A DNA stretch of 38,312 nt, from positions 1-38,312 of the forward strand of contig VAXR01000060.1 of assembly GCA_005885165.1 (NCBI GenBank). Reading direction: 5' to 3'. Under the pieces are notes generated by a model that was given only the letters and a program-made list of their open reading frames with translations, did no database searches and was not told the origin of the DNA. Source of the DNA: Actinomycetota bacterium (GTDB taxonomy: Bacteria; Actinomycetota; Thermoleophilia; Solirubrobacterales; Thermoleophilaceae). Numbering within the stretch: the first letter of the stretch is position 1; every line of letters begins with the position of its first letter. Both the position numbers and the translations under genes were made by a program. Positions 114 to 34,755 of the stretch are shown piece after piece.

Positions 114-312
114 AAGGCTCGCTGCGTTGTCGCACTTTCGTAACGGTGCGTTTGAACGAAGCGGCCGTTCTCAGGCGCGAGTCGAATCTTGTGCGCTATA
201 GGCCACAAGAATGGCCTCGCGCCTGACTGCCGCCTTCGCGGGAGGCGAACACAGGGTTACGGGGCAGCCAACTACGTAACAGGGACCATCAACCGCGATC
301 GGGCCCGCCCCC
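102..312 (-). ncRNA. Candidate structured RNA, copy 1 of a two-member family (unnamed)
   Basis: Closing helix 102-109 (GGGGGCGG) pairs with 305-312 (CCGCCCCC). It encloses helices 171-181/216-226 and 188-193/204-209, whose loop contains GCTATAG. Collinear sequence blocks match the reverse complement of 33668-33885. Strand is guessed from a U.G pair (251/166) that is only possible on the minus strand. Confidence 0.4.
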
Positions 313-440
313 TTCGTTGCCCGCTGTGGGCCAACGACCGAAGGACGGCGCCGACGCAGTGTGACCGCCGCGGCCGGGGGATGGGTAGCGCCAGCGACGT
401 TGGCGCCGCGATGCTTGCCCGCGGGCGGGGCCCTAGCGCG

Positions 441-1742
441 TCAGCCCGCGCTCTGCAGGCGCGGCACGGCGGCCAGCCAGGCGAAGAGCGCGACCGGTGC
501 GGCGTGCGTCATGAGCTGCCCGTAGCGGTAGCTGCGGTACCCGTCCCGGTGCTTGGCGGCGGCGCTGCCGTCCCAGAACTTGACGTATAGCTCGCCGACG
601 CGGGCGTTGCGTACGGCGTCCTCGGCGGCCACCCGTGCCCAGTCGTATAGCGCCGTCGGGGCGATTCGAATGTGCCGCCTGGTGGCCTCGCGCGCTGCGC
701 GCTTGTCGGCGGCGAGCTGCAGCATGTAGCGGAACATGATCGTGTCGGCGGGCGGCTTGTAGAAGGGGTCCCGCGCGTTCCAGCGCTTCAGGGCGTGCAT
801 GCCGAGCGACCAGGCGGCCGCGCATGCGCGGCTCGCACCCGTGTGGCACATGGCCAGCTGCGCGCCGATCATCGTTCCCTCGATGTAGGTGAGCGGCGGC
901 TCGTCCCGGGTTCCGTACAACCAGCCGTTCTTACCGGAGGGGGTGGCGAAGGCATCGGCCGCGCCGATGTAGCGGCGCGCGCTCGCCAGGAACTGGGTGC
1001 GGCCCGTGTGCTCGTAGAGCTCCGCGGCGAGCGCGGCAGCGCCGCCGAGCGTCTCGAGGTTGGAGCCCTTGTTCGCCACGCGCGTGCTCCAGCGCATCCG
1101 CTGGTGGGCGGCGTCCCAGCCGCGGGTGTCGATGAACCGCAGCGCGAGCGCCGCGTCGTCGAGGTACCGGCGCTCGTGCGTGGCGCGGTACGCGTCGACG
1201 AAGGCGAGCCCCCACCAGGCGTTGTCGTCGACCCAGATCTCGTCGCCCGGGGTGTGCGACCCCGGGTAGGGCCCGTAGCCGCCCATGGCGTGGTTGAAGT
1301 AGGTCTCCGCGAAATCCGCGACGGACCGGACGGCGTCGCTGTGCGCGGGGCTGGGCTCGGCGATGGCGACGCCGGACATCGCCTCCCAGAGCGGAAAGAG
1401 AGTCCAGATCGTGCCGAGCGGGTACTGGTCGGTGTCGTTCAGCCGGTCGTTGAACCAGGCGTGCTCGGGGTTCCACCAGAACGCGCGCGCGGTGGCGATC
1501 CCCTGCGTCGCGAGCCTCAGGTAGCGGTCGGAGCGGGCCGCGTGGAGCGCGCCGCCCCCGGCCAGCCGGCCCGTCGAGGGCCGCGCTTCGAGATGGGCCC
1601 GCGACCCCGTCTGGTTCAGGGCGAAAACGACGATCGCCGCGATCACGGCCATGAGCGCGGCGGACCACGCGACGATGCGCCCCACGCGGACGCGGCCCCG
1701 CCGGCCCCGCCGCCCTCGGTCCCCTGGCAGATGCGTACTCAT
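441..1742 (-). CDS. Glycoside hydrolase family 76-like protein (putative alpha-1,6-mannanase fold), N-terminal membrane anchor
   Basis: 433-aa ORF. After an Arg-rich N-terminus there is one hydrophobic helix (IVAWSAALMAVIAAIVVFAL). It has the GH76-type block IWVDDNAWWGLAFVDAYRATHERRYLDDA and the GSNLETLGGAA block. It is a tandem paralog of 1759-3039. Confidence 0.75.
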   Translation of the reverse strand: MSTHLPGDRGRRGRRGRVRVGRIVAWSAALMAVIAAIVVFALNQTGSRAHLEARPSTGRLAGGGALHAARSDRYLRLATQGIATARAFWWNPEHAWFNDRLNDTDQYPLGTIWTLFPLWEAMSGVAIAEPSPAHSDAVRSVADFAETYFNHAMGGYGPYPGSHTPGDEIWVDDNAWWGLAFVDAYRATHERRYLDDAALALRFIDTRGWDAAHQRMRWSTRVANKGSNLETLGGAAALAAELYEHTGRTQFLASARRYIGAADAFATPSGKNGWLYGTRDEPPLTYIEGTMIGAQLAMCHTGASRACAAAWSLGMHALKRWNARDPFYKPPADTIMFRYMLQLAADKRAAREATRRHIRIAPTALYDWARVAAEDAVRNARVGELYVKFWDGSAAAKHRDGYRSYRYGQLMTHAAPVALFAWLAAVPRLQSAG

Positions 1743-1758: not shown

Positions 1759-3039
1759 TCAGTGCTTCGGCCGGTGGACGACCCCGAGCCACGCGAGCAG
1801 CGCCACTGGTGCGGCGTGGGTCATCAGCTGCCCGTAGCGATAGCTCCGGTACCCGTCGTGGTGCTTGGAGGCCGCCGTGCCGTCCCAGAACTTGATGAAC
1901 AAGCCGTGGACGCGCGCGTTGTTGAGAGCGTCCTCCGCGGCGCGGCGGGCCCACTCATAGAGCTGTCGTGGAGTGGTGTACGGGTGCACCTCGCGGGAGA
2001 GCCGCAGCGCGCGCTTGTCGCCCGCGAGCTGGAGCACGTAGCGGAAGAGGATGGAATCGGCGGGCGGGTTGTAGAAGGGATCGCGGTGGCGCCAGTGCTT
2101 GTACGCCTTCGCGCCCAAGCTCCAGGCCCTGCGGCACGCGCGGTGATCGCCCTTCCGGCAGAGCGCGAGGTGCCCGGCGATGAACGTCCCCTCGACGTAC
2201 GACAGGGCGGGCTCGTCGCGGGATTCGTAGAGCGACTTGCCGCGGTGGCGGCGGGTCCCCTTCTTGTCGGCCCAGCGGATGTACTTGCGCGCGATGTTGC
2301 GGTAGGTCTTGTTGCCCGTGTACTCGTAGAGCTCGCCCGCGAGCGCCGTCGCTCCACCCAGGGTCTCGAGGTTCGACCCCTGGTTCTGGACAGCTGTGCT
2401 CCACCGCATGCGGTGGTGCTTTCGATCCCAGCCGTACGAGTTGAGGAACTGGATCCCGCGCGCCGCGTCGTCGAGGTAGCGGCGGTCGCGGGTCGCGCGG
2501 TAGGCGTCGACAAACCCGAGCCCCCACCAAGCGTTGTCGTCGAACCAGATTTCGTCGCGCGTGTGGCTGCCCGGGTAGGGGCCGTACCCCTGCATCAGCG
2601 AGTTGAAGTACGTCTCGGCGGTGTTGGCGAACCAGGCGACCTCGTTGCGGTGCGCCGAGGTCGGCTGGGCGATGGCAACGCCCGACAGCGCCTCCCAGAG
2701 CGGGAACAGCGTCCAGATCGTTCCGAGCGGGTACTGGTCGGTGTCGTTCATCCGGTCGTTGAACCACTGCTTGCCGGGGTTCCACCAGTTCCGGTACGAG
2801 TTGTAGATGCCCTGCCTGGCCAGGGACAGGTAGTGGCCGTTGTGGTTCACGCGGCGGCGGTGCTTCTTCTTGTGCTTTGCGGCGTGCGCGGACCCGCGCG
2901 CGGCGTGCGACTGCGGGGGGTGAGCCGCGACGACGATGGCGGCGGCGATCAGCAGGGCCGCGCCGAGCGCGGCGACGCTGCTCCGGAGGCGGCGAGCGAT
3001 TTGCCTCCGGCCATGGAAGCTTGGCAACGGCAAGTACAT
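1759..3039 (-). CDS. Glycoside hydrolase family 76-like protein, paralog, N-terminal membrane anchor
   Basis: 426-aa ORF with ATG at 3039. It carries the same conserved blocks (IWFDDNAWWGLGFVDAYRATRDRRYLDDA, GSNLETLGGATALAGELYE) and aligns collinearly with the 441-1742 product. Confidence 0.75.
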   Translation of the reverse strand: MYLPLPSFHGRRQIARRLRSSVAALGAALLIAAAIVVAAHPPQSHAARGSAHAAKHKKKHRRRVNHNGHYLSLARQGIYNSYRNWWNPGKQWFNDRMNDTDQYPLGTIWTLFPLWEALSGVAIAQPTSAHRNEVAWFANTAETYFNSLMQGYGPYPGSHTRDEIWFDDNAWWGLGFVDAYRATRDRRYLDDAARGIQFLNSYGWDRKHHRMRWSTAVQNQGSNLETLGGATALAGELYEYTGNKTYRNIARKYIRWADKKGTRRHRGKSLYESRDEPALSYVEGTFIAGHLALCRKGDHRACRRAWSLGAKAYKHWRHRDPFYNPPADSILFRYVLQLAGDKRALRLSREVHPYTTPRQLYEWARRAAEDALNNARVHGLFIKFWDGTAASKHHDGYRSYRYGQLMTHAAPVALLAWLGVVHRPKH

Positions 3040-25059: not shown

Positions 25060-25677
25060 TCACGACGCGCCCAGCGCGCGGAGGTCGTGAGCCAGCCGCT
25101 CCGGCGTGGCCTGCTGCGCCGGGTAGCCGACGCGCTGCATCCCGCGGGCGTCGGCCAGCACGAGCCTGGCCTGGTGCTCCTCGTGCGGGAGCTGCGGCCG
25201 GATCGCGAAGGCCCGCCAGAGCGGAGCGAGCTGCTGCCGCGTTCCGAGCAGGAAGTGCATCCGGCCTGTCATCCCGACCTTCGCGAGAAAGCGGCGTGCG
25301 CTGCCGGGCGTGTCGTGTGCGGGATCGACCGAGATGGCGATCGCCGTGACGGGCCCCCGCAGGTCGTCGAGCGCCCCCTTCACCTGCTGCGCGGTTATCG
25401 GGCAGGTGTCGTGGCAGTGGCTGTAGAGGAACGTGATCACGGCGGGCCGGCCGAGCAGCGTCCTGGAGGAGACCTCGCGGCCGTCCTGGTCCTTGAGATT
25501 GAAGTTCGGAACGCGCAGGCCCGCGGGGAGGAGGGCGCCGTTGAAGTGCGAGGCGGGGCCCGAAGCGGAGCCGCGCAGGTCGTTCGCTTCGTGGTGGGCG
25601 CGAGTCGCTGCCAAAACGACCGCCGCGAAGGCGAGAGCGGCGCCGGCGACTAGGAGGGCGATCCAGCGGGGTCTCAT
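25060..25677 (-). CDS. SCO1/SenC family copper chaperone (thioredoxin fold)
   Basis: N-terminal anchor RWIALLVAGAALAFAAVVLA. The CxxxC motif is in FLYSHCHDTCP. Downstream are the SVDPAHDTP block and a conserved His (EEHQARLVLAD). Confidence 0.85.
   Translation of the reverse strand: MRPRWIALLVAGAALAFAAVVLAATRAHHEANDLRGSASGPASHFNGALLPAGLRVPNFNLKDQDGREVSSRTLLGRPAVITFLYSHCHDTCPITAQQVKGALDDLRGPVTAIAISVDPAHDTPGSARRFLAKVGMTGRMHFLLGTRQQLAPLWRAFAIRPQLPHEEHQARLVLADARGMQRVGYPAQQATPERLAHDLRALGAS
25275..25367. repeat. 93-bp inverted repeat, copy A (native context inside the SCO gene)
   Basis: Its reverse complement is identical at all 93 positions to 26473-26565 (checked base by base). It encodes DLRGPVTAIAISVDPAHDTPGSARRFLAKV of the SCO protein. 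Confidence 0.95.
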
Positions 25678-25990: not shown

Positions 25991-27122
25991 ATGCCCAGCG
26001 GTTCAGAGCTGATACGACAGATTCGAGACCAGGTACGCGAGCTCGATCCCCGCGAGGTTCACGACGCCCTGGCGAGCTCGAACGGCAACGGGCGCGTGCC
26101 GGTGCTGGTCGACGTCCGCGAGCAGCACGAGTTCGAGGAGGCGCATATCCCGGGAGCCATCCATGTCCCGCGCGCCTATCTCGAGTCGCGAATCGAGGGG
26201 AAGGTCGGCGACAAGTCGCAGTCTGTCGTCCTTTACTGCGCGACCGGTCAGCGTTCGGCGCTCGCCGCTCACACGCTCGAGCACCTGCTCGGTTACCAGG
26301 ACGTTGCGTCGATGAACGGCGGGATCACGCTCTGGAAGGACCGCGGCTTCGAGGTGGAGACGCCCCGCGCGCTGAGCGCCGAGCAGAAGAGCCGCTACTC
26401 GCGCCATCTCCTGCTTCCCGAGATCGGGCTCGAGGGCCAGCTCAAGCTGCTTGACGCGAAGGTTCTTCTGCTACGACCTGCGGGGGCCCGTCACGGCGAT
26501 CGCCATCTCGGTCGATCCCGCACACGACACGCCCGGCAGCGCACGCCGCTTTCTCGCGAAGGTCGACTCCGCCGAGCAGACCATCAACTCGCTCAACCCC
26601 GACGTCGAGGTGGTCAAGTACAAGACGCGCCTCGACGCGTCGAACATCATGGAGATCATCGACGGCTACGACGTGATCGTCGACGGCGCCGACAACTTCC
26701 CGACGCGCTACCTGCTGAACGACGCGACAGTCCGGCTCGGGATCCCGGTGGTCTCGGCGTCGATCCTCGGCTTCGACGGCCAGCTCTCGGTGTTCGCGCC
26801 GTACGAGGGCCCGTGCTACCGCTGCCTCTACCCGACCCCGCCGCCCGCGGAGCTCGCGCCGTCGTGCGGTGCCAACGGCGTGCTCGGCGTCCTGCCGGGC
26901 ACGATGGGGATGCTCCAGGCCACCGAGGTGATCAAGCTGATCACCGGGTCCGGCGAGCCGCTGATCGGGAGGCTGCTCCTGTACGACGCATTGGGCGCGA
27001 CGTTCACGGAGCTCAAGGTTCGCCGGGATCCGAACTGCCCGATCTGCTCGCGCGACCCCGATTCCATCTCCGAGGAGGAGATGGGGAAGTTCCCTGACTA
27101 CGAAGCCTTCTGCGCCGGCTAG
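25991..27122 (+). pseudogene. Rhodanese + ThiF/MoeB-type E1 (MoeZ-like sulfur-carrier adenylyltransferase/sulfurtransferase), disrupted
   Basis: The N-terminal part (frame of 25991) holds a rhodanese domain with CATGQRS, followed by RYSRHLLLPEIGLEGQLKLLDAKVLLL. The C-terminal part (frame of 26451) runs DSAEQTINSLNPDVEVV...DGADNFPTRYLLND...CYRC...CPIC. Between them lie 93 bp of SCO-derived sequence and a frame change. The GxGxxG nucleotide-binding loop is absent. Confidence 0.8.
26473..26565. repeat. 93-bp inverted repeat, copy B (ectopic, inside the E1 gene)
   Basis: This is the perfect reverse complement of 25275-25367. On the plus strand it reads the SCO peptide in the same frame as the downstream E1 half. 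Confidence 0.95.
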
Positions 27123-31090: not shown

Positions 31091-31852
31091 GTGGTAGGGT
31101 CGCCGGCCCAGGTGGGGGAGCAAGGGGATAGCCGCTCTGGGCTCCGGCTCTTGCGGAGCGGGATTTCGCGCAGGGCTTTCCTCGAGCGCGCCGGGCTGAC
31201 GGGTGCCGCCGCGATCCTCGCCCAGATCCCGGGCTTCCTGGCAAAGCAGGGCTGGCTCGAGGCGGCGCTCGCCGCGGAGACCGACCTCACGCGCGACACG
31301 CTGAACGGGCTGGTGGCGTTCGTCGTGCCCGGGCCGGACGCCTACTCGAAGGCGCAGGGGCAGAGCTCGAAACGCCCGGGCGGCATCCAGGCGGGGACCA
31401 CCCCGGCGCTCATCGAGCTTCTCGATCGCTTCGTCGGCACCTCCGAGGGGCCGACGCTGCCCTCGTCGGGCGGCGTCGCCACGCTGCTCAACGGCCTGGC
31501 CGTCGACGTGAACCCCGCCGCGTCGAGCGGCGCGTTCCTGTCCCCGTTCGCCCGGCTCTCCTTCGCGGACAAGATCGAGGTCTTCCACCGCTTCGAGCAG
31601 ATGACCGAGGGCTCGGAGCTGCGCTTCGTGTCGGGGATCCTCATCGGCGCCGTCGCGTTCCTCGCGTACGGCGAGGCCGGTGTATTCGATCCCGCGACGG
31701 GACGGCTCAAGGGGAAGCCGGTCGGCTGGACGATCTCGAACTACTCCGGGATCGCGGAGGGCCGCAACGAGCTCAAGGGCTACTGGCAGGGGCGCCGCAG
31801 CGTCCACACGAGCAAGCGTTACCACGTCAAGCGCCACGCGAGGCATCACTGA
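31091..31852 (+). CDS. Twin-arginine-signal protein, probable small subunit/escort of the adjacent GMC oxidoreductase
   Basis: The Tat motif is GISRRAFLERAGLTGAAA. The stop overlaps the ATG of the next gene (TGATG). The start is uncertain (GTG 31091, GTG 31112 or TTG 31151). Confidence 0.6.
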   Translation: MVGSPAQVGEQGDSRSGLRLLRSGISRRAFLERAGLTGAAAILAQIPGFLAKQGWLEAALAAETDLTRDTLNGLVAFVVPGPDAYSKAQGQSSKRPGGIQAGTTPALIELLDRFVGTSEGPTLPSSGGVATLLNGLAVDVNPAASSGAFLSPFARLSFADKIEVFHRFEQMTEGSELRFVSGILIGAVAFLAYGEAGVFDPATGRLKGKPVGWTISNYSGIAEGRNELKGYWQGRRSVHTSKRYHVKRHARHH

Positions 31853-33624
31853 TGCGCGACGTGATCGTAATCGGCGCGGGCGGCGGCGGCCCGGTGGTGG
31901 CGAAGGAGCTCGCCGCCCACGGGCTCGACGTGCTGGTGCTCGAGGCGGGCCCGCGCCACCTGCGGCCTGAGCGCGAGTGGCGGCACCTCGAGAACGACGC
32001 CAACAACCCGGTGTCCGGCTACTTCCGCTGGGGGCCTGCCGACCGCGCGAAGTCCGAGTGGCTGCGCGAGACCCCGCAGAACTGCTTCGTCTGGCAGCTC
32101 TCGGGCGTGGGAGGTACGACGCAGCACTACTACGGCAACTGCCCACGCGCCGTCCCGGGCGTCTTCCACGGCTACAGGGGCAGGGACCGCTCGCGCTACG
32201 ACCGCGCGCACGAGTTCCCGTTCTCCTACAAGACCCTCGTCCCCTACTACGAGTGGGTTGAGCACACGCTGCCCGTGCAGACGGCCGCGATGGGCACGAA
32301 GGAGGAGGTCTTCCTCCACGGCGCGAGCAAGCTCGGGATCCCGGTGCAGAAGACGAAGGACGCCCTGCACGCCGCGTACAGGCCCCAGGAGAACGCGATC
32401 CTCCAGCCCCACGGCACGGCGGGCAAGACGGCCGAGCGGAACAAGCTCGTGTTCCCGAAAGCGCGCGGCTGCACCTTCTGCGGCTACTGCTTCCAGGGCT
32501 GCTTCGAGCCGCGCCACGCCCCGCGCAACCTCTTCGCCAAGCGCTCCACCGACAACAGCTACGTGCCGATGGCCCTAACCGCGGACGCCTGGTCGAAGCA
32601 CGGCAAGCGGATCACGCTGATCCCCGACGCGTTCGCCACGAAGATCGGGACGACGACCGTCGGCGGCAAGACCGTCGCGAACAGCGTCACTTGGCGGGTC
32701 GGCAAGACCGGCGAGACGTTCACCGAGGAGGCCAAGGTGATCGTCATGTCGGGCGGGACGACGGAGAACCCGCGCCTGTGGCTGAACAGCGGGCTTCCGA
32801 ACCCGAACGACTGGGTCGGCCGCGGCTACACGGACCACTACTTCGACTGGCTGATCGGCGTCATGCCCCGCTACACGGGGTCGAGCAAGGGGCCGGGCTC
32901 CTCGGCGCGCGTCGACTTCCCCGGGCACGGCGGGCTCGAGAACGTCGGGCTGCCTCCGGCGCTTCAGGCGTTCTCGGCCACGTTCTCGGACGGCGGGATC
33001 AACGACGTGTACCTGAACGGCCACCCGAAGATGCACGGCGTGGACGGCAACGGACGCCGGGTGGGCAACCTCCTCAAGCAGCTGACCCACGACGTCGACC
33101 GCCTGCTGAACGTGCTCGTGATCACCGACGACGACGTGGAGGCCCAGAACCGCGTGACGCTGTCACAGGACCTGCCGGCGGACGAGAACGGTGCGGTGCC
33201 GAAGATCGAGTTCCACTACCGCCAGCGGACGGCACGTACCCTGCGGAACCGCGAGTACCTGGCGCGGAAGGCGCTGGCGCTCCTGAAGCACGCCGGCGCG
33301 AAGCAGGTCTACCGGCTGAACTGGCCGCCGCTGATACTCCACGTCCAATCGACGATGCGGATGGGGGCGAGCCCCTCGAACTCGGTGCTCGACCGGAGCT
33401 GCGAGGCGCGCTTCGTCAAGCGGCTCTTCATCGCCGACAACTCGGCGTTGCCGAACTCGCTCGGAGGCCCGAACCCGACGCTCACCAACCAGGCGCTCTC
33501 GACGCGCACGGCCGAGACGATCTTCAGGCGCTACTTCGGCGGCCACGACTACGTGAGGAACGGACACCCGGTGCAGTCGATCGACCACCGGGTGACGCGC
33601 GCGGTGCTGAAGCGGAAGCTGTAG
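31852..33624 (+). CDS. GMC family FAD-dependent oxidoreductase
   Basis: DVIVIGAGGGGPVVAKELAAHGLDVLVLEAG is the Rossmann FAD motif. The C-terminal block is HVQSTMRMG...LFIADNSALPNSLGGPNPTLT. Confidence 0.85.
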   Translation: MRDVIVIGAGGGGPVVAKELAAHGLDVLVLEAGPRHLRPEREWRHLENDANNPVSGYFRWGPADRAKSEWLRETPQNCFVWQLSGVGGTTQHYYGNCPRAVPGVFHGYRGRDRSRYDRAHEFPFSYKTLVPYYEWVEHTLPVQTAAMGTKEEVFLHGASKLGIPVQKTKDALHAAYRPQENAILQPHGTAGKTAERNKLVFPKARGCTFCGYCFQGCFEPRHAPRNLFAKRSTDNSYVPMALTADAWSKHGKRITLIPDAFATKIGTTTVGGKTVANSVTWRVGKTGETFTEEAKVIVMSGGTTENPRLWLNSGLPNPNDWVGRGYTDHYFDWLIGVMPRYTGSSKGPGSSARVDFPGHGGLENVGLPPALQAFSATFSDGGINDVYLNGHPKMHGVDGNGRRVGNLLKQLTHDVDRLLNVLVITDDDVEAQNRVTLSQDLPADENGAVPKIEFHYRQRTARTLRNREYLARKALALLKHAGAKQVYRLNWPPLILHVQSTMRMGASPSNSVLDRSCEARFVKRLFIADNSALPNSLGGPNPTLTNQALSTRTAETIFRRYFGGHDYVRNGHPVQSIDHRVTRAVLKRKL

Positions 33625-33667
33625 GGCGCGCTTACCCAACCGCCAGCGGGGCTCAGGCCAACAGCAT

Positions 33668-33885
33668 CGATAAAGGGGCAGGGATGGTTTCGCCGCGCGT
33701 TACGTTCGTTGCCGTCTTGTAACCGGACGTTCCCCTGAGAGGGCCTCCGGCGAAGACGAGAGTCCATTACTAGGTGCTATAGCCCCTACGAATGGACTCG
33801 CGCTCTAAGGGGGCGAACGCGCGGTTACGAGATTGAGACACGGCAACGTGATTGGCGCGCGGTAACAGGCCCACTCCCTTTATCG
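33668..33885 (+). ncRNA. Candidate structured RNA, copy 2 of a two-member family (unnamed)
   Basis: Nested helices seen: 33668-77/33876-85, 33693-702/33853-62, 33707-15/33840-48, 33718-25/33822-29, 33728-35/33811-19, 33760-68/33791-99, 33771-74/33785-88. Several G.U pairs exist only on the plus strand. It is homologous to the reverse complement of 102-312. Confidence 0.45.
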
Positions 33886-33948
33886 CTTCCCTCCACCTCG
33901 GGCAATGAGGCGTTCTGCGCCGCCCAGGTGCGGCTCGCAGGGGCCCGC

Positions 33949-34755
33949 CTACAGCGGCGTCTCGTGCGAGCCCGCTCGCCCGGCGTCGCTCTTCTCGTAG
34001 AACCGCTTGAGCCGGCCCAGCGTCTCCTCCGCGTCGGCGCACGAGTAGCCGTTCAGTGCCTCGATCCGCAGCTGGTCGTCGAGCGGCCGGCCGATCACGT
34101 CGAGGATCGTCTCCTTCGCCGAGCGCACGGCGACCTGGCTGTTGCGGAGTATCTGGCGCGCCACCCGCTCGGCCTCGTCCATCAGCCGCTCGTGGGGAAC
34201 GACGCGCGACACCAGGTTGCACTGGAGCGCCCGCTGCGCGTCGATCGGCTCCGCGGTGAGGAGCATCTCGAGCGCGATCCCTGAGCCGCAGGTGTTCACC
34301 AGCCTCACGATCCCGCCGTCACCGTGGTGGTAGCCGCGGCGGGCCTCGAACGACCCGAACATCGCGCGCTCCGAGGCGATGCGTATGTCGCAGGCCAGCG
34401 CGGTCTCGAGGCCGCCGGCAAGCGCCCAGCCGTTCACCGCGGCGATCGTCGGCTTGTACGTGCGGTGCAGTCCGCGCGTCAGCCCGCCCAGCCCGGTGGC
34501 GACGTTGTCGCGCACCTTCCGGGGCGTGGCGTCCTCGATCCACGGAGGGATGAAGGTCTTGAGATCTGCACCCGCGGAGAAGGAGTCACCGGTGCCGGTG
34601 AGGATCGCGACGTCGACCGCGTCGTCCGAGGCGAAGTCCTCCCAGGTGCTCCAGAGAAGCTCGTGCGTCTCGGGATCGATCGCGTTCTTGGCCTCGGGTC
34701 GGTTGATCGTGACGTAGGCGATCCGGTCGCGCTTCTCGTAGAGCACCTTGGGCAC
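33949..34755 (-). CDS. Enoyl-CoA hydratase/isomerase (crotonase) family protein
   Basis: GTG 34755 lies 4 nt after AAGGAGGA. Blocks seen: RIAYVTINRPEAKNA, FSAGADLK, AAVNGWALAGGLE. Confidence 0.85.
   Translation of the reverse strand: MPKVLYEKRDRIAYVTINRPEAKNAIDPETHELLWSTWEDFASDDAVDVAILTGTGDSFSAGADLKTFIPPWIEDATPRKVRDNVATGLGGLTRGLHRTYKPTIAAVNGWALAGGLETALACDIRIASERAMFGSFEARRGYHHGDGGIVRLVNTCGSGIALEMLLTAEPIDAQRALQCNLVSRVVPHERLMDEAERVARQILRNSQVAVRSAKETILDVIGRPLDDQLRIEALNGYSCADAEETLGRLKRFYEKSDAGRAGSHETPL

Follow-up and report, generated by a model that had tools for sequence, protein, structure and literature searches.

The DNA analysed here, referred to as the window, comprises 38,312 nt with a GC content of 72%. 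Its nearest named relatives are the Thermoleophilaceae, and aligned blocks are 98-99.7% identical to contigs of the soil actinobacterial MAG GCA_005885525.1 and related metagenome scaffolds. Loci fetched for comparison are designated by L numbers. In the window, a gene for a GMC-family oxidoreductase and a gene for an enoyl-CoA hydratase converge on a spacer of 324 bp with a GC content of 0.617, compared with ~0.67-0.72 in the flanking windows. The long, A/T-richer convergent spacer described in an earlier note on this DNA is thus confirmed by measurement. The spacer contains a palindromic element, copy B, and a second element, copy A, is located next to a GH76-like gene (Table 1). Two GH76-like paralogues are adjacent in the window (441-1742 and 1759-3039, minus strand) with ~70-82% DNA identity over >1 kb, and the tandem pair is also present in the relatives L045 and L051. 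The tetranucleotide CTAG is scarce in the whole window, with 16 occurrences observed versus ~100 expected from base composition; TAG is nevertheless the stop codon of roughly half of the window's heuristically called genes (58/122).

Table 1. Coordinates of the two palindromic elements, their parts and the adjacent genes in the window.
Feature	Position	Strand	Basis or remark
GH76-like gene	441-1742	-	Convergent on copy A; used for locating the orthologous empty site
Copy A, long form, left end truncated	125-329		Deletion junction near 124/125
Core hairpin of copy A	171-226		GAGTCGAAT...CTATAG...AATGGCCTC; three mismatches in the lower stem
Degenerate right outer box of copy A	~307-329
GMC-family oxidoreductase gene	31852-33624	+	Stops 31 nt before copy B; used for locating orthologous sites
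Copy B, complete long form (outer boxes, arms, core)	33656-33890 (~235 bp)		Folds; boundaries from outer boxes common to other loci
Left outer box M1 of copy B, GGCCAACAGCATCGATAAAGGGG	33656-33678		Motif search of fetched loci and flank comparison
Left arm of copy B	33679-33751		GTTAC (33699), GTAAC (33719), CGTTCCCC box
Segment missing from strains L004 and L006	33710-33873 (164 nt)		Aligned flanks otherwise nearly identical
Core hairpin of copy B	33752-33807		GAGTCCATT...CTATAG...AATGGACTC at 33760-33799 plus 8-nt flanks; common to the whole family
Centre of symmetry of copy B, CTATAG	33777-33782		Hexamer occurs twice in the 38-kb window, once per copy centre
Right arm of copy B	33808-33875		GGGGGCGAAC, GGTTACG (33824), GGTAAC (33862)
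Right outer box M1' of copy B, CCCTTTATCGCTTCC	33876-33890		Inverted partner of M1; fold, flanks and motif search
Enoyl-CoA hydratase gene	33949-34755	-	Convergent with the GMC gene; stop codon 58 nt past copy B

The symmetry of the element is nearly perfect. Positions 33640-33900 fold with a free energy of -122.8 kcal/mol, compared with -96.6 ± 4.8 kcal/mol for shuffled sequences (z -5.5, 0 of 200 shuffles as stable). Every nested helix previously listed recurs at the same coordinates in this minimum-free-energy fold, and the interval 33668-33885, to which the earlier note had drawn attention, is the paired part of copy B. M1 and M1' pair as the basal helix. The helices make up a single long imperfect palindrome with no multi-stem junction, and the opposite strand of the same stretch reaches -120.8 kcal/mol (z -4.5). 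As both strands fold about equally well, the feature is an imperfect palindrome at the level of DNA, and the fold offers no basis for the strand assignment made earlier. The core of copy B is scored by covariance model R1 at 60.2 bits on the minus strand and 56.3 bits on the plus strand.

The arms of both copies carry identical sequence motifs in inverted orientation, so that they have more in common than structure alone. The arm module of copy B is also common to copy A, L025 and L028. The mutually exclusive pairing proposed for GTTACG and GTAAC spans 5 bp only and is a by-product of the GTAAC and GTTAC pentamers that recur in the arms. These pentamers are concentrated in the two elements, which hold 7 of the 16 occurrences in the window on 1.3% of its length.

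Copy A had been recorded as a diverged second copy at 102-312. It is real, though in the window it is truncated by a deletion of 110 nt, which has AACGC microhomology at its junction and is common to two other assemblies. The complete form is found in the strains L047 and L048, with flanks 100% identical to those in the window; it measures ~240 nt, shares 76% identity with copy B and forms one long hairpin of -113 to -116 kcal/mol. R1 assigns the core of copy A 52.7 bits on the plus strand and 39.9 bits on the minus strand. The compensatory changes claimed between the two copies hold for the apical stem only, while elsewhere the likeness is due to shared inverted motifs.

Copies A and B belong to a larger family. 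A degenerate central-hairpin pattern, for which no chance matches are expected in the window, matches there twice (179-218 and 33760-33799), and an unfiltered covariance-model run returned the same two places and no other. Species-representative genomes were scanned once with a loose pattern, which yielded four copies in the Thermoleophilaceae MAG SMAG_U3178, one in another actinobacterial MAG and four unrelated chance matches. A scan of metagenome contigs gave 26 loci, all from soil samples. After removal of duplicates from the genome and metagenome scans, ~25 distinct sites remain; the copy number thus looks low for very large collections, as read from strict exact patterns. BLAST searches of plasmids and phages and a scan of viral contigs gave no match to the element, and a literature search for published palindromic repeats of Thermoleophilia gave nothing relevant. 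The family looks undescribed and of a familiar kind.

The unit shared by all copies is a hairpin of 50-56 nt, GGYGAGAGTCCATTT-N7-8-CTATAG-N7-8-AAATGGACTCTCRCC (alignment A4). Its lower stem, GAGAGTCCATTT / AAATGGACTCTC, is conserved, its upper stem varies but stays self-complementary, and its CTATAG centre is invariant. This core is located, alone or with outer modules, at ~25 unrelated intergenic sites of soil Thermoleophilia contigs, and the elements range from 56 to ~245 bp. In some copies the core stands alone, in others it is wrapped by inverted arms and outer boxes; short-form copies share nothing beyond the 56-nt hairpin. The arms, which carry the GGGGGCGAAC box and two or three GTAAC/GTTAC pentamers, are present in the long forms only, namely both window copies, L025 and one side of L028. 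The outer boxes have the consensus (AACGGC)n-GCAGCGATAAGGGG and inverted CCCCTTATCGCTGC. Both members of the inverted pair GCAGCGATAAGGGG / CCCCTTATCGCTGC are present in window copy B, L031, L040 and L041, and other family copies have one outer box only or none. In 150 kb of fetched loci, the outer-box motif adjoins core hairpins only, except for one unlinked match with two mismatches in L038, which is probably due to chance. Tandem AACGGC hexamers of two to six units are found just outside the outer boxes in L019 (~462-510), L025 (~705-745), L033 (~725-760) and L041 (~560-600); the number of units varies by copy, and the arrangement resembles the subterminal repeats of transposons. Among the sites compared, no gene family recurs beside the copies. 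By heuristic, GC3-based gene calls, ~7 sites are located between convergent genes, ~11 between tandem genes and two or three between divergent genes.

Orthologous sites reveal how the two window copies arose. In L049, which has the same gene order and a GMC orthologue 86% identical to that of the window, the site of copy B is a 15-nt spacer with no element. In L051, read at its junction only, the site of copy A is a 4-nt spacer; here too the gene order is the same, and the GH76-like gene is 84% identical. The filled spacers in the species of the window measure 324 nt at the site of copy B and 327-437 nt at that of copy A. Filled and empty orthologous sites were therefore found for both copies, as expected of an insertion polymorphism, and a covariance-model search of 65 kb from the related loci L042-L044, L049 and L050 was negative. 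Since the orthologous spacers of relatives lack the element, both window copies are gains in this lineage.

Once present, the elements vary. Both copies are structurally polymorphic among strains with identical or near-identical aligned flanks. L004 and L006 keep a piece of the left arm of copy B without its partner, which indicates a deletion rather than an empty site. Copies are retained at orthologous sites of related strains in L016/L036 and L018/L032. The junction between the GMC and enoyl-CoA hydratase genes has itself been remodelled repeatedly. In the 85% relatives L042 (4714-5397) and L044 (5072-5755), a gene for a short-chain dehydrogenase of 227 aa is situated between the two genes, at a position orthologous to window ~33625-33948; this gene is absent from the window and from L049. 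The possibility that the window spacer is the remnant of an adh_short gene was considered and rejected, as no remnant is present.

A different mobile element is found at the same junction. In L050, an 89% relative, the site of copy B is occupied by T1, an element of 165 nt with terminal inverted repeats that begins exactly where the GMC orthologue has its stop codon. The ends of T1 read CTAG|TGTCCTGAGGCGGAAGTTCGG...CTCAGGACA|CTAG (L050 2225-2389, L040 1024-1458). In L040, the copy of T1 holds ~256 nt of extra sequence that includes an outer-box/core unit of the family described here, so that the two kinds of element are nested. The 437-nt insert that holds copy A is also bounded by CTAG...CTAG, but this interval comprises a stop codon as well as ~200 nt without counterpart in other copies. 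The extra flanks of the insertions contain no inverted repeat and bear no similarity to T1, which places them outside the shared unit. No consistent direct repeat that could represent a target-site duplication was found around 16 short copies. A target preference for TAG stop codons was likewise rejected as evidence (the adjacent stop is TAG in 14/21 cases versus 58/122 elsewhere, p=0.08).

The RNA reading was examined by database and covariation analysis. Rfam gave no match at the gathering score for the window and none at E<=10 for 33500-34050, in line with the earlier note, which had matched the feature to no RNA family. Ten related loci matched only mir-5879, on both strands and with 23-32 bits, whereas the gathering score is 97; mir-5879 is a eukaryotic miRNA-precursor model, and these matches are to a generic hairpin. 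In an alignment of 26 core sequences, 84% of cells pair, compared with 34-47% when the partners are slid, and two-sided changes are observed in 67 cells versus 35 in shuffles (0/500 as high). This covariation is restricted to the upper stem; in the lower stem, pair counts at the variable columns 6/51 and 8/49 indicate that each arm changes irrespective of the other. The covariation among homologs that had been put forward as a test of the RNA reading is therefore present, but it is confined to the upper stem of the core and has no strand specificity.

Where the sequence is palindromic, covariation fits a hairpin of RNA and one of single-stranded DNA alike, and strand orientation was examined in several ways. 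The better-folding strand agrees with the direction of the upstream gene in five cases and disagrees in six, which amounts to no correlation. Clustering of G.T versus A.C mismatches by copy is not significant (p ~0.19). When copies were oriented by one T.G position in the lower stem, the orientation agreed by eye with apical mismatches in 12/14 cases; this agreement was discounted and not relied on, because the copies share ancestry and the orientation was picked from the same data. The combination of strand-specific covariation and syntenic conservation across species that characterises structured ncRNAs and riboswitches was not found. The hairpin is nevertheless under some constraint, as its upper stem covaries and copies are retained at orthologous sites. 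Such constraint fits RNA selection as well as recognition of a DNA hairpin.

The feature is best explained as belonging to a new family of non-autonomous, palindromic repeats of the MITE/REP kind, which is specific to a lineage of soil Thermoleophilia and occupies intergenic sites, and a probability of roughly 65% is assigned to this reading. Selfish DNA is more likely than a dedicated RNA gene, because the repeat family inserts between genes and decays by deletion. New copies land in very short spacers at gene ends and later decay through internal deletion. Their spread may depend on an enzyme supplied in trans, with the hairpin and the repeated boxes as its target; candidates are a transposase and an enzyme of the HUH/Y1 type, which would act on single-stranded DNA in folded form. 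The fetched loci revealed no cognate transposase or RAYT-like gene, nor an autonomous element bounded by matching ends. If either flanking gene is transcribed past its end, the RNA is predicted to form a very stable hairpin, which could block 3' exonucleases or be cleaved by RNase III.

MITEs include bacterial types that form long hairpins, such as Correia/NEMIS, RUP and ERIC. The present elements resemble them in being short (56-245 bp), non-coding and essentially one long inverted repeat, with terminal inverted repeats and many copies at unrelated intergenic sites. Like MITEs, they may be present or absent at orthologous sites, are nested with a second small mobile element, fall into variable subfamilies and include derivatives with internal deletions. 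A MITE had been named as the alternative that would displace the RNA interpretation; the evidence points in this direction, although clear target-site duplications were not found. In addition, an autonomous partner was not found, the family is best conserved at the central hairpin with its invariant CTATAG apex and not at the termini only, and the core also occurs alone, without outer inverted boxes. These features distinguish it from known MITEs.

REP, REPIN and BIME elements of Proteobacteria are mobilised by RAYT Y1 transposases. REP and REPIN sequences reach hundreds of copies per genome, have a conserved GTAG head and are associated with a RAYT gene. Like the family described here, they are imperfect palindromes concentrated at gene 3' ends and between convergent genes and form mosaics of modular motifs; their hairpin is probably recognised as a folded single strand and can stabilise the upstream mRNA. 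In contrast, alignment A4 shows no evident GTAG head, the copy number is apparently tens at most (4 exact matches in one MAG) rather than hundreds, the host is actinobacterial, and a RAYT gene was not seen in the fetched loci.

A second reading, which partly overlaps with that of a mobile repeat, regards the element as a cis-acting RNA hairpin at gene ends, serving as a sequence-conserved, bidirectional, factor-dependent terminator or 3'-end stabiliser that would be kept, like mycobacterial TRIT or E. coli REP, for its punctuation of transcripts, with spread by duplication or transposition being secondary. It is considered rather unlikely. The placement of the copies speaks in its favour, as judged from heuristic, GC3-based gene calls. 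Most copies are located directly past stop codons, with 12 of the ~16 short copies starting 0-32 nt beyond one, and in several loci, such as L038 and L035, the element occupies the entire convergent spacer. In L029, the core hairpin (285-323) follows 9 nt downstream of a tRNA gene (205-275; Rfam tRNA, 61.9 bits). The covarying upper stem and a core that is somewhat better conserved than its flanks, as seen between L016 and L036, are also consistent with a function at transcript ends. However, two or three sites lie between divergent genes (L012/L027, L019, possibly L015), the better-folding strand is independent of the upstream gene, relatives do without the element at the same junctions, and strains tolerate large internal deletions. 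Moreover, neither strand of the window copies has a U-tract, the post-hairpin sequence being CTCTCGCC-like, and the GC-rich hairpin followed by a U-tract that defines a canonical intrinsic terminator is not present. Mycobacterial RNA polymerase is reported to need a U-tract at intrinsic terminators (PMC3993855).

A precedent for such hairpins at gene ends is the TRIT motif ("Tuberculosis Rho-independent terminator") of Mycobacterium, described by Gardner et al. in 2011 (PMC3152330). It consists of palindromic, sequence-conserved gene-end hairpins found in one actinobacterial genus only; a genome has 147 of them, placed within a very narrow range near -8 relative to the stop codon (PMC3152330). 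TRIT and the present family both consist of a sequence-conserved palindromic hairpin that is repeated at gene termini, near stop codons or overlapping them. Each is restricted to one actinobacterial lineage of high GC content, and each is bidirectional because it is palindromic. They differ in sequence and host; nested long forms, which reach ~245 bp, and some copies in the promoter regions of divergent genes are further features of the present family.

For TRIT, a protein that binds the hairpin and acts in termination or processing was once proposed. By analogy in kind, the core hairpin could be the recognition site of a dedicated Thermoleophilia factor, either a termination or processing protein or an HUH/Y1 enzyme, with the long forms growing, in a manner not described before, by successive inverted modules. 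The family would then be a new actinobacterial hairpin class and not an ordinary MITE. This is judged unlikely; if true, it would mirror the question posed by TRIT in mycobacteria.

A site recognised in duplex or cruciform DNA, whether a protein-binding or architectural site for a nucleoid protein or gyrase, as in BIME, or a symmetric recombinase site, is a further and very unlikely alternative. The nearly perfect symmetry would suit such a site, as would the CTATAG centre, itself palindromic and found nowhere else in the window, and the motifs kept on both arms with GTAAC pentamers in either orientation. However, ~22 bp separate the conserved half-sites from the centre, an arrangement not typical of recombinase cores, and the site is dispensable in relatives and strains. 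The upper stem varies yet stays self-complementary, which favours recognition of a folded single strand over that of a duplex.

Folded-strand recognition is also a property of the attC sites of integrons, which, like the present elements, are imperfect palindromes whose outer parts are conserved and whose central stem varies. Unlike attC sites, these are scattered in ordinary chromosomal intergenic regions without an integrase or a cassette array, and GTTAC/GTAAC does not resemble the R'/R'' core consensus. Two further resemblances, of GTCCATT...AATGGAC to the telomere-resolution site of phage N15, and of GTTAC/GTAAC to attC core sites, were dropped as short chance similarities with no supporting context.

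The weakest reading, that of a stand-alone structured ncRNA, riboswitch-like or an sRNA, whose nested helices and alternative GTTACG pairings form a functional architecture, can hardly be upheld: the very stable fold, the failure of known families to match and the second copy of similar architecture would fit it, but one long palindrome that folds equally well on both strands takes the place of a multi-stem junction, no promoter- or terminator-like signals were found around either window copy (0 terminator-like sites), the short forms share only the 56-nt hairpin, and at the variable positions of the lower stem each arm changes on its own. Of the candidate structured RNA originally proposed, a structure stable beyond chance and its second copy therefore stand. 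A dedicated RNA is not supported, given ~25 unrelated contexts, absence from the orthologous sites of relatives with ~85% protein identity, internal deletions in strains and a better-folding strand unrelated to transcription direction.

Assignment of the very stable 218-nt fold to a palindromic repeat, and not to a new riboswitch-like RNA, removes a false lead. The elements appear to constitute an undescribed repeat family of uncultivated soil Thermoleophilia, for which covariance model R1 and the motif definitions can be reused, and their recognition is of use in annotation. They flag junctions of convergent genes as insertion and deletion hotspots and may affect the 3' ends of transcripts. 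Repeats of this kind can also confound assembly and RNA-motif discovery in high-GC metagenomes.

A separate feature of the window is a perfect inverted repeat of 93 nt (25275-25367 / 26473-26565). A reading as an insertion sequence with related ends was rejected, since the repeat is an inverted copy of a gene fragment, the second arm reproducing part of the SCO1/SenC gene in inverted orientation. This arm replaces 142 nt of a ThiF/MoeB-rhodanese gene and breaks the reading frame, whereas the 142 nt are kept in the near-identical contigs L001 and L002. The repeat is probably an assembly chimera, or otherwise a real rearrangement.
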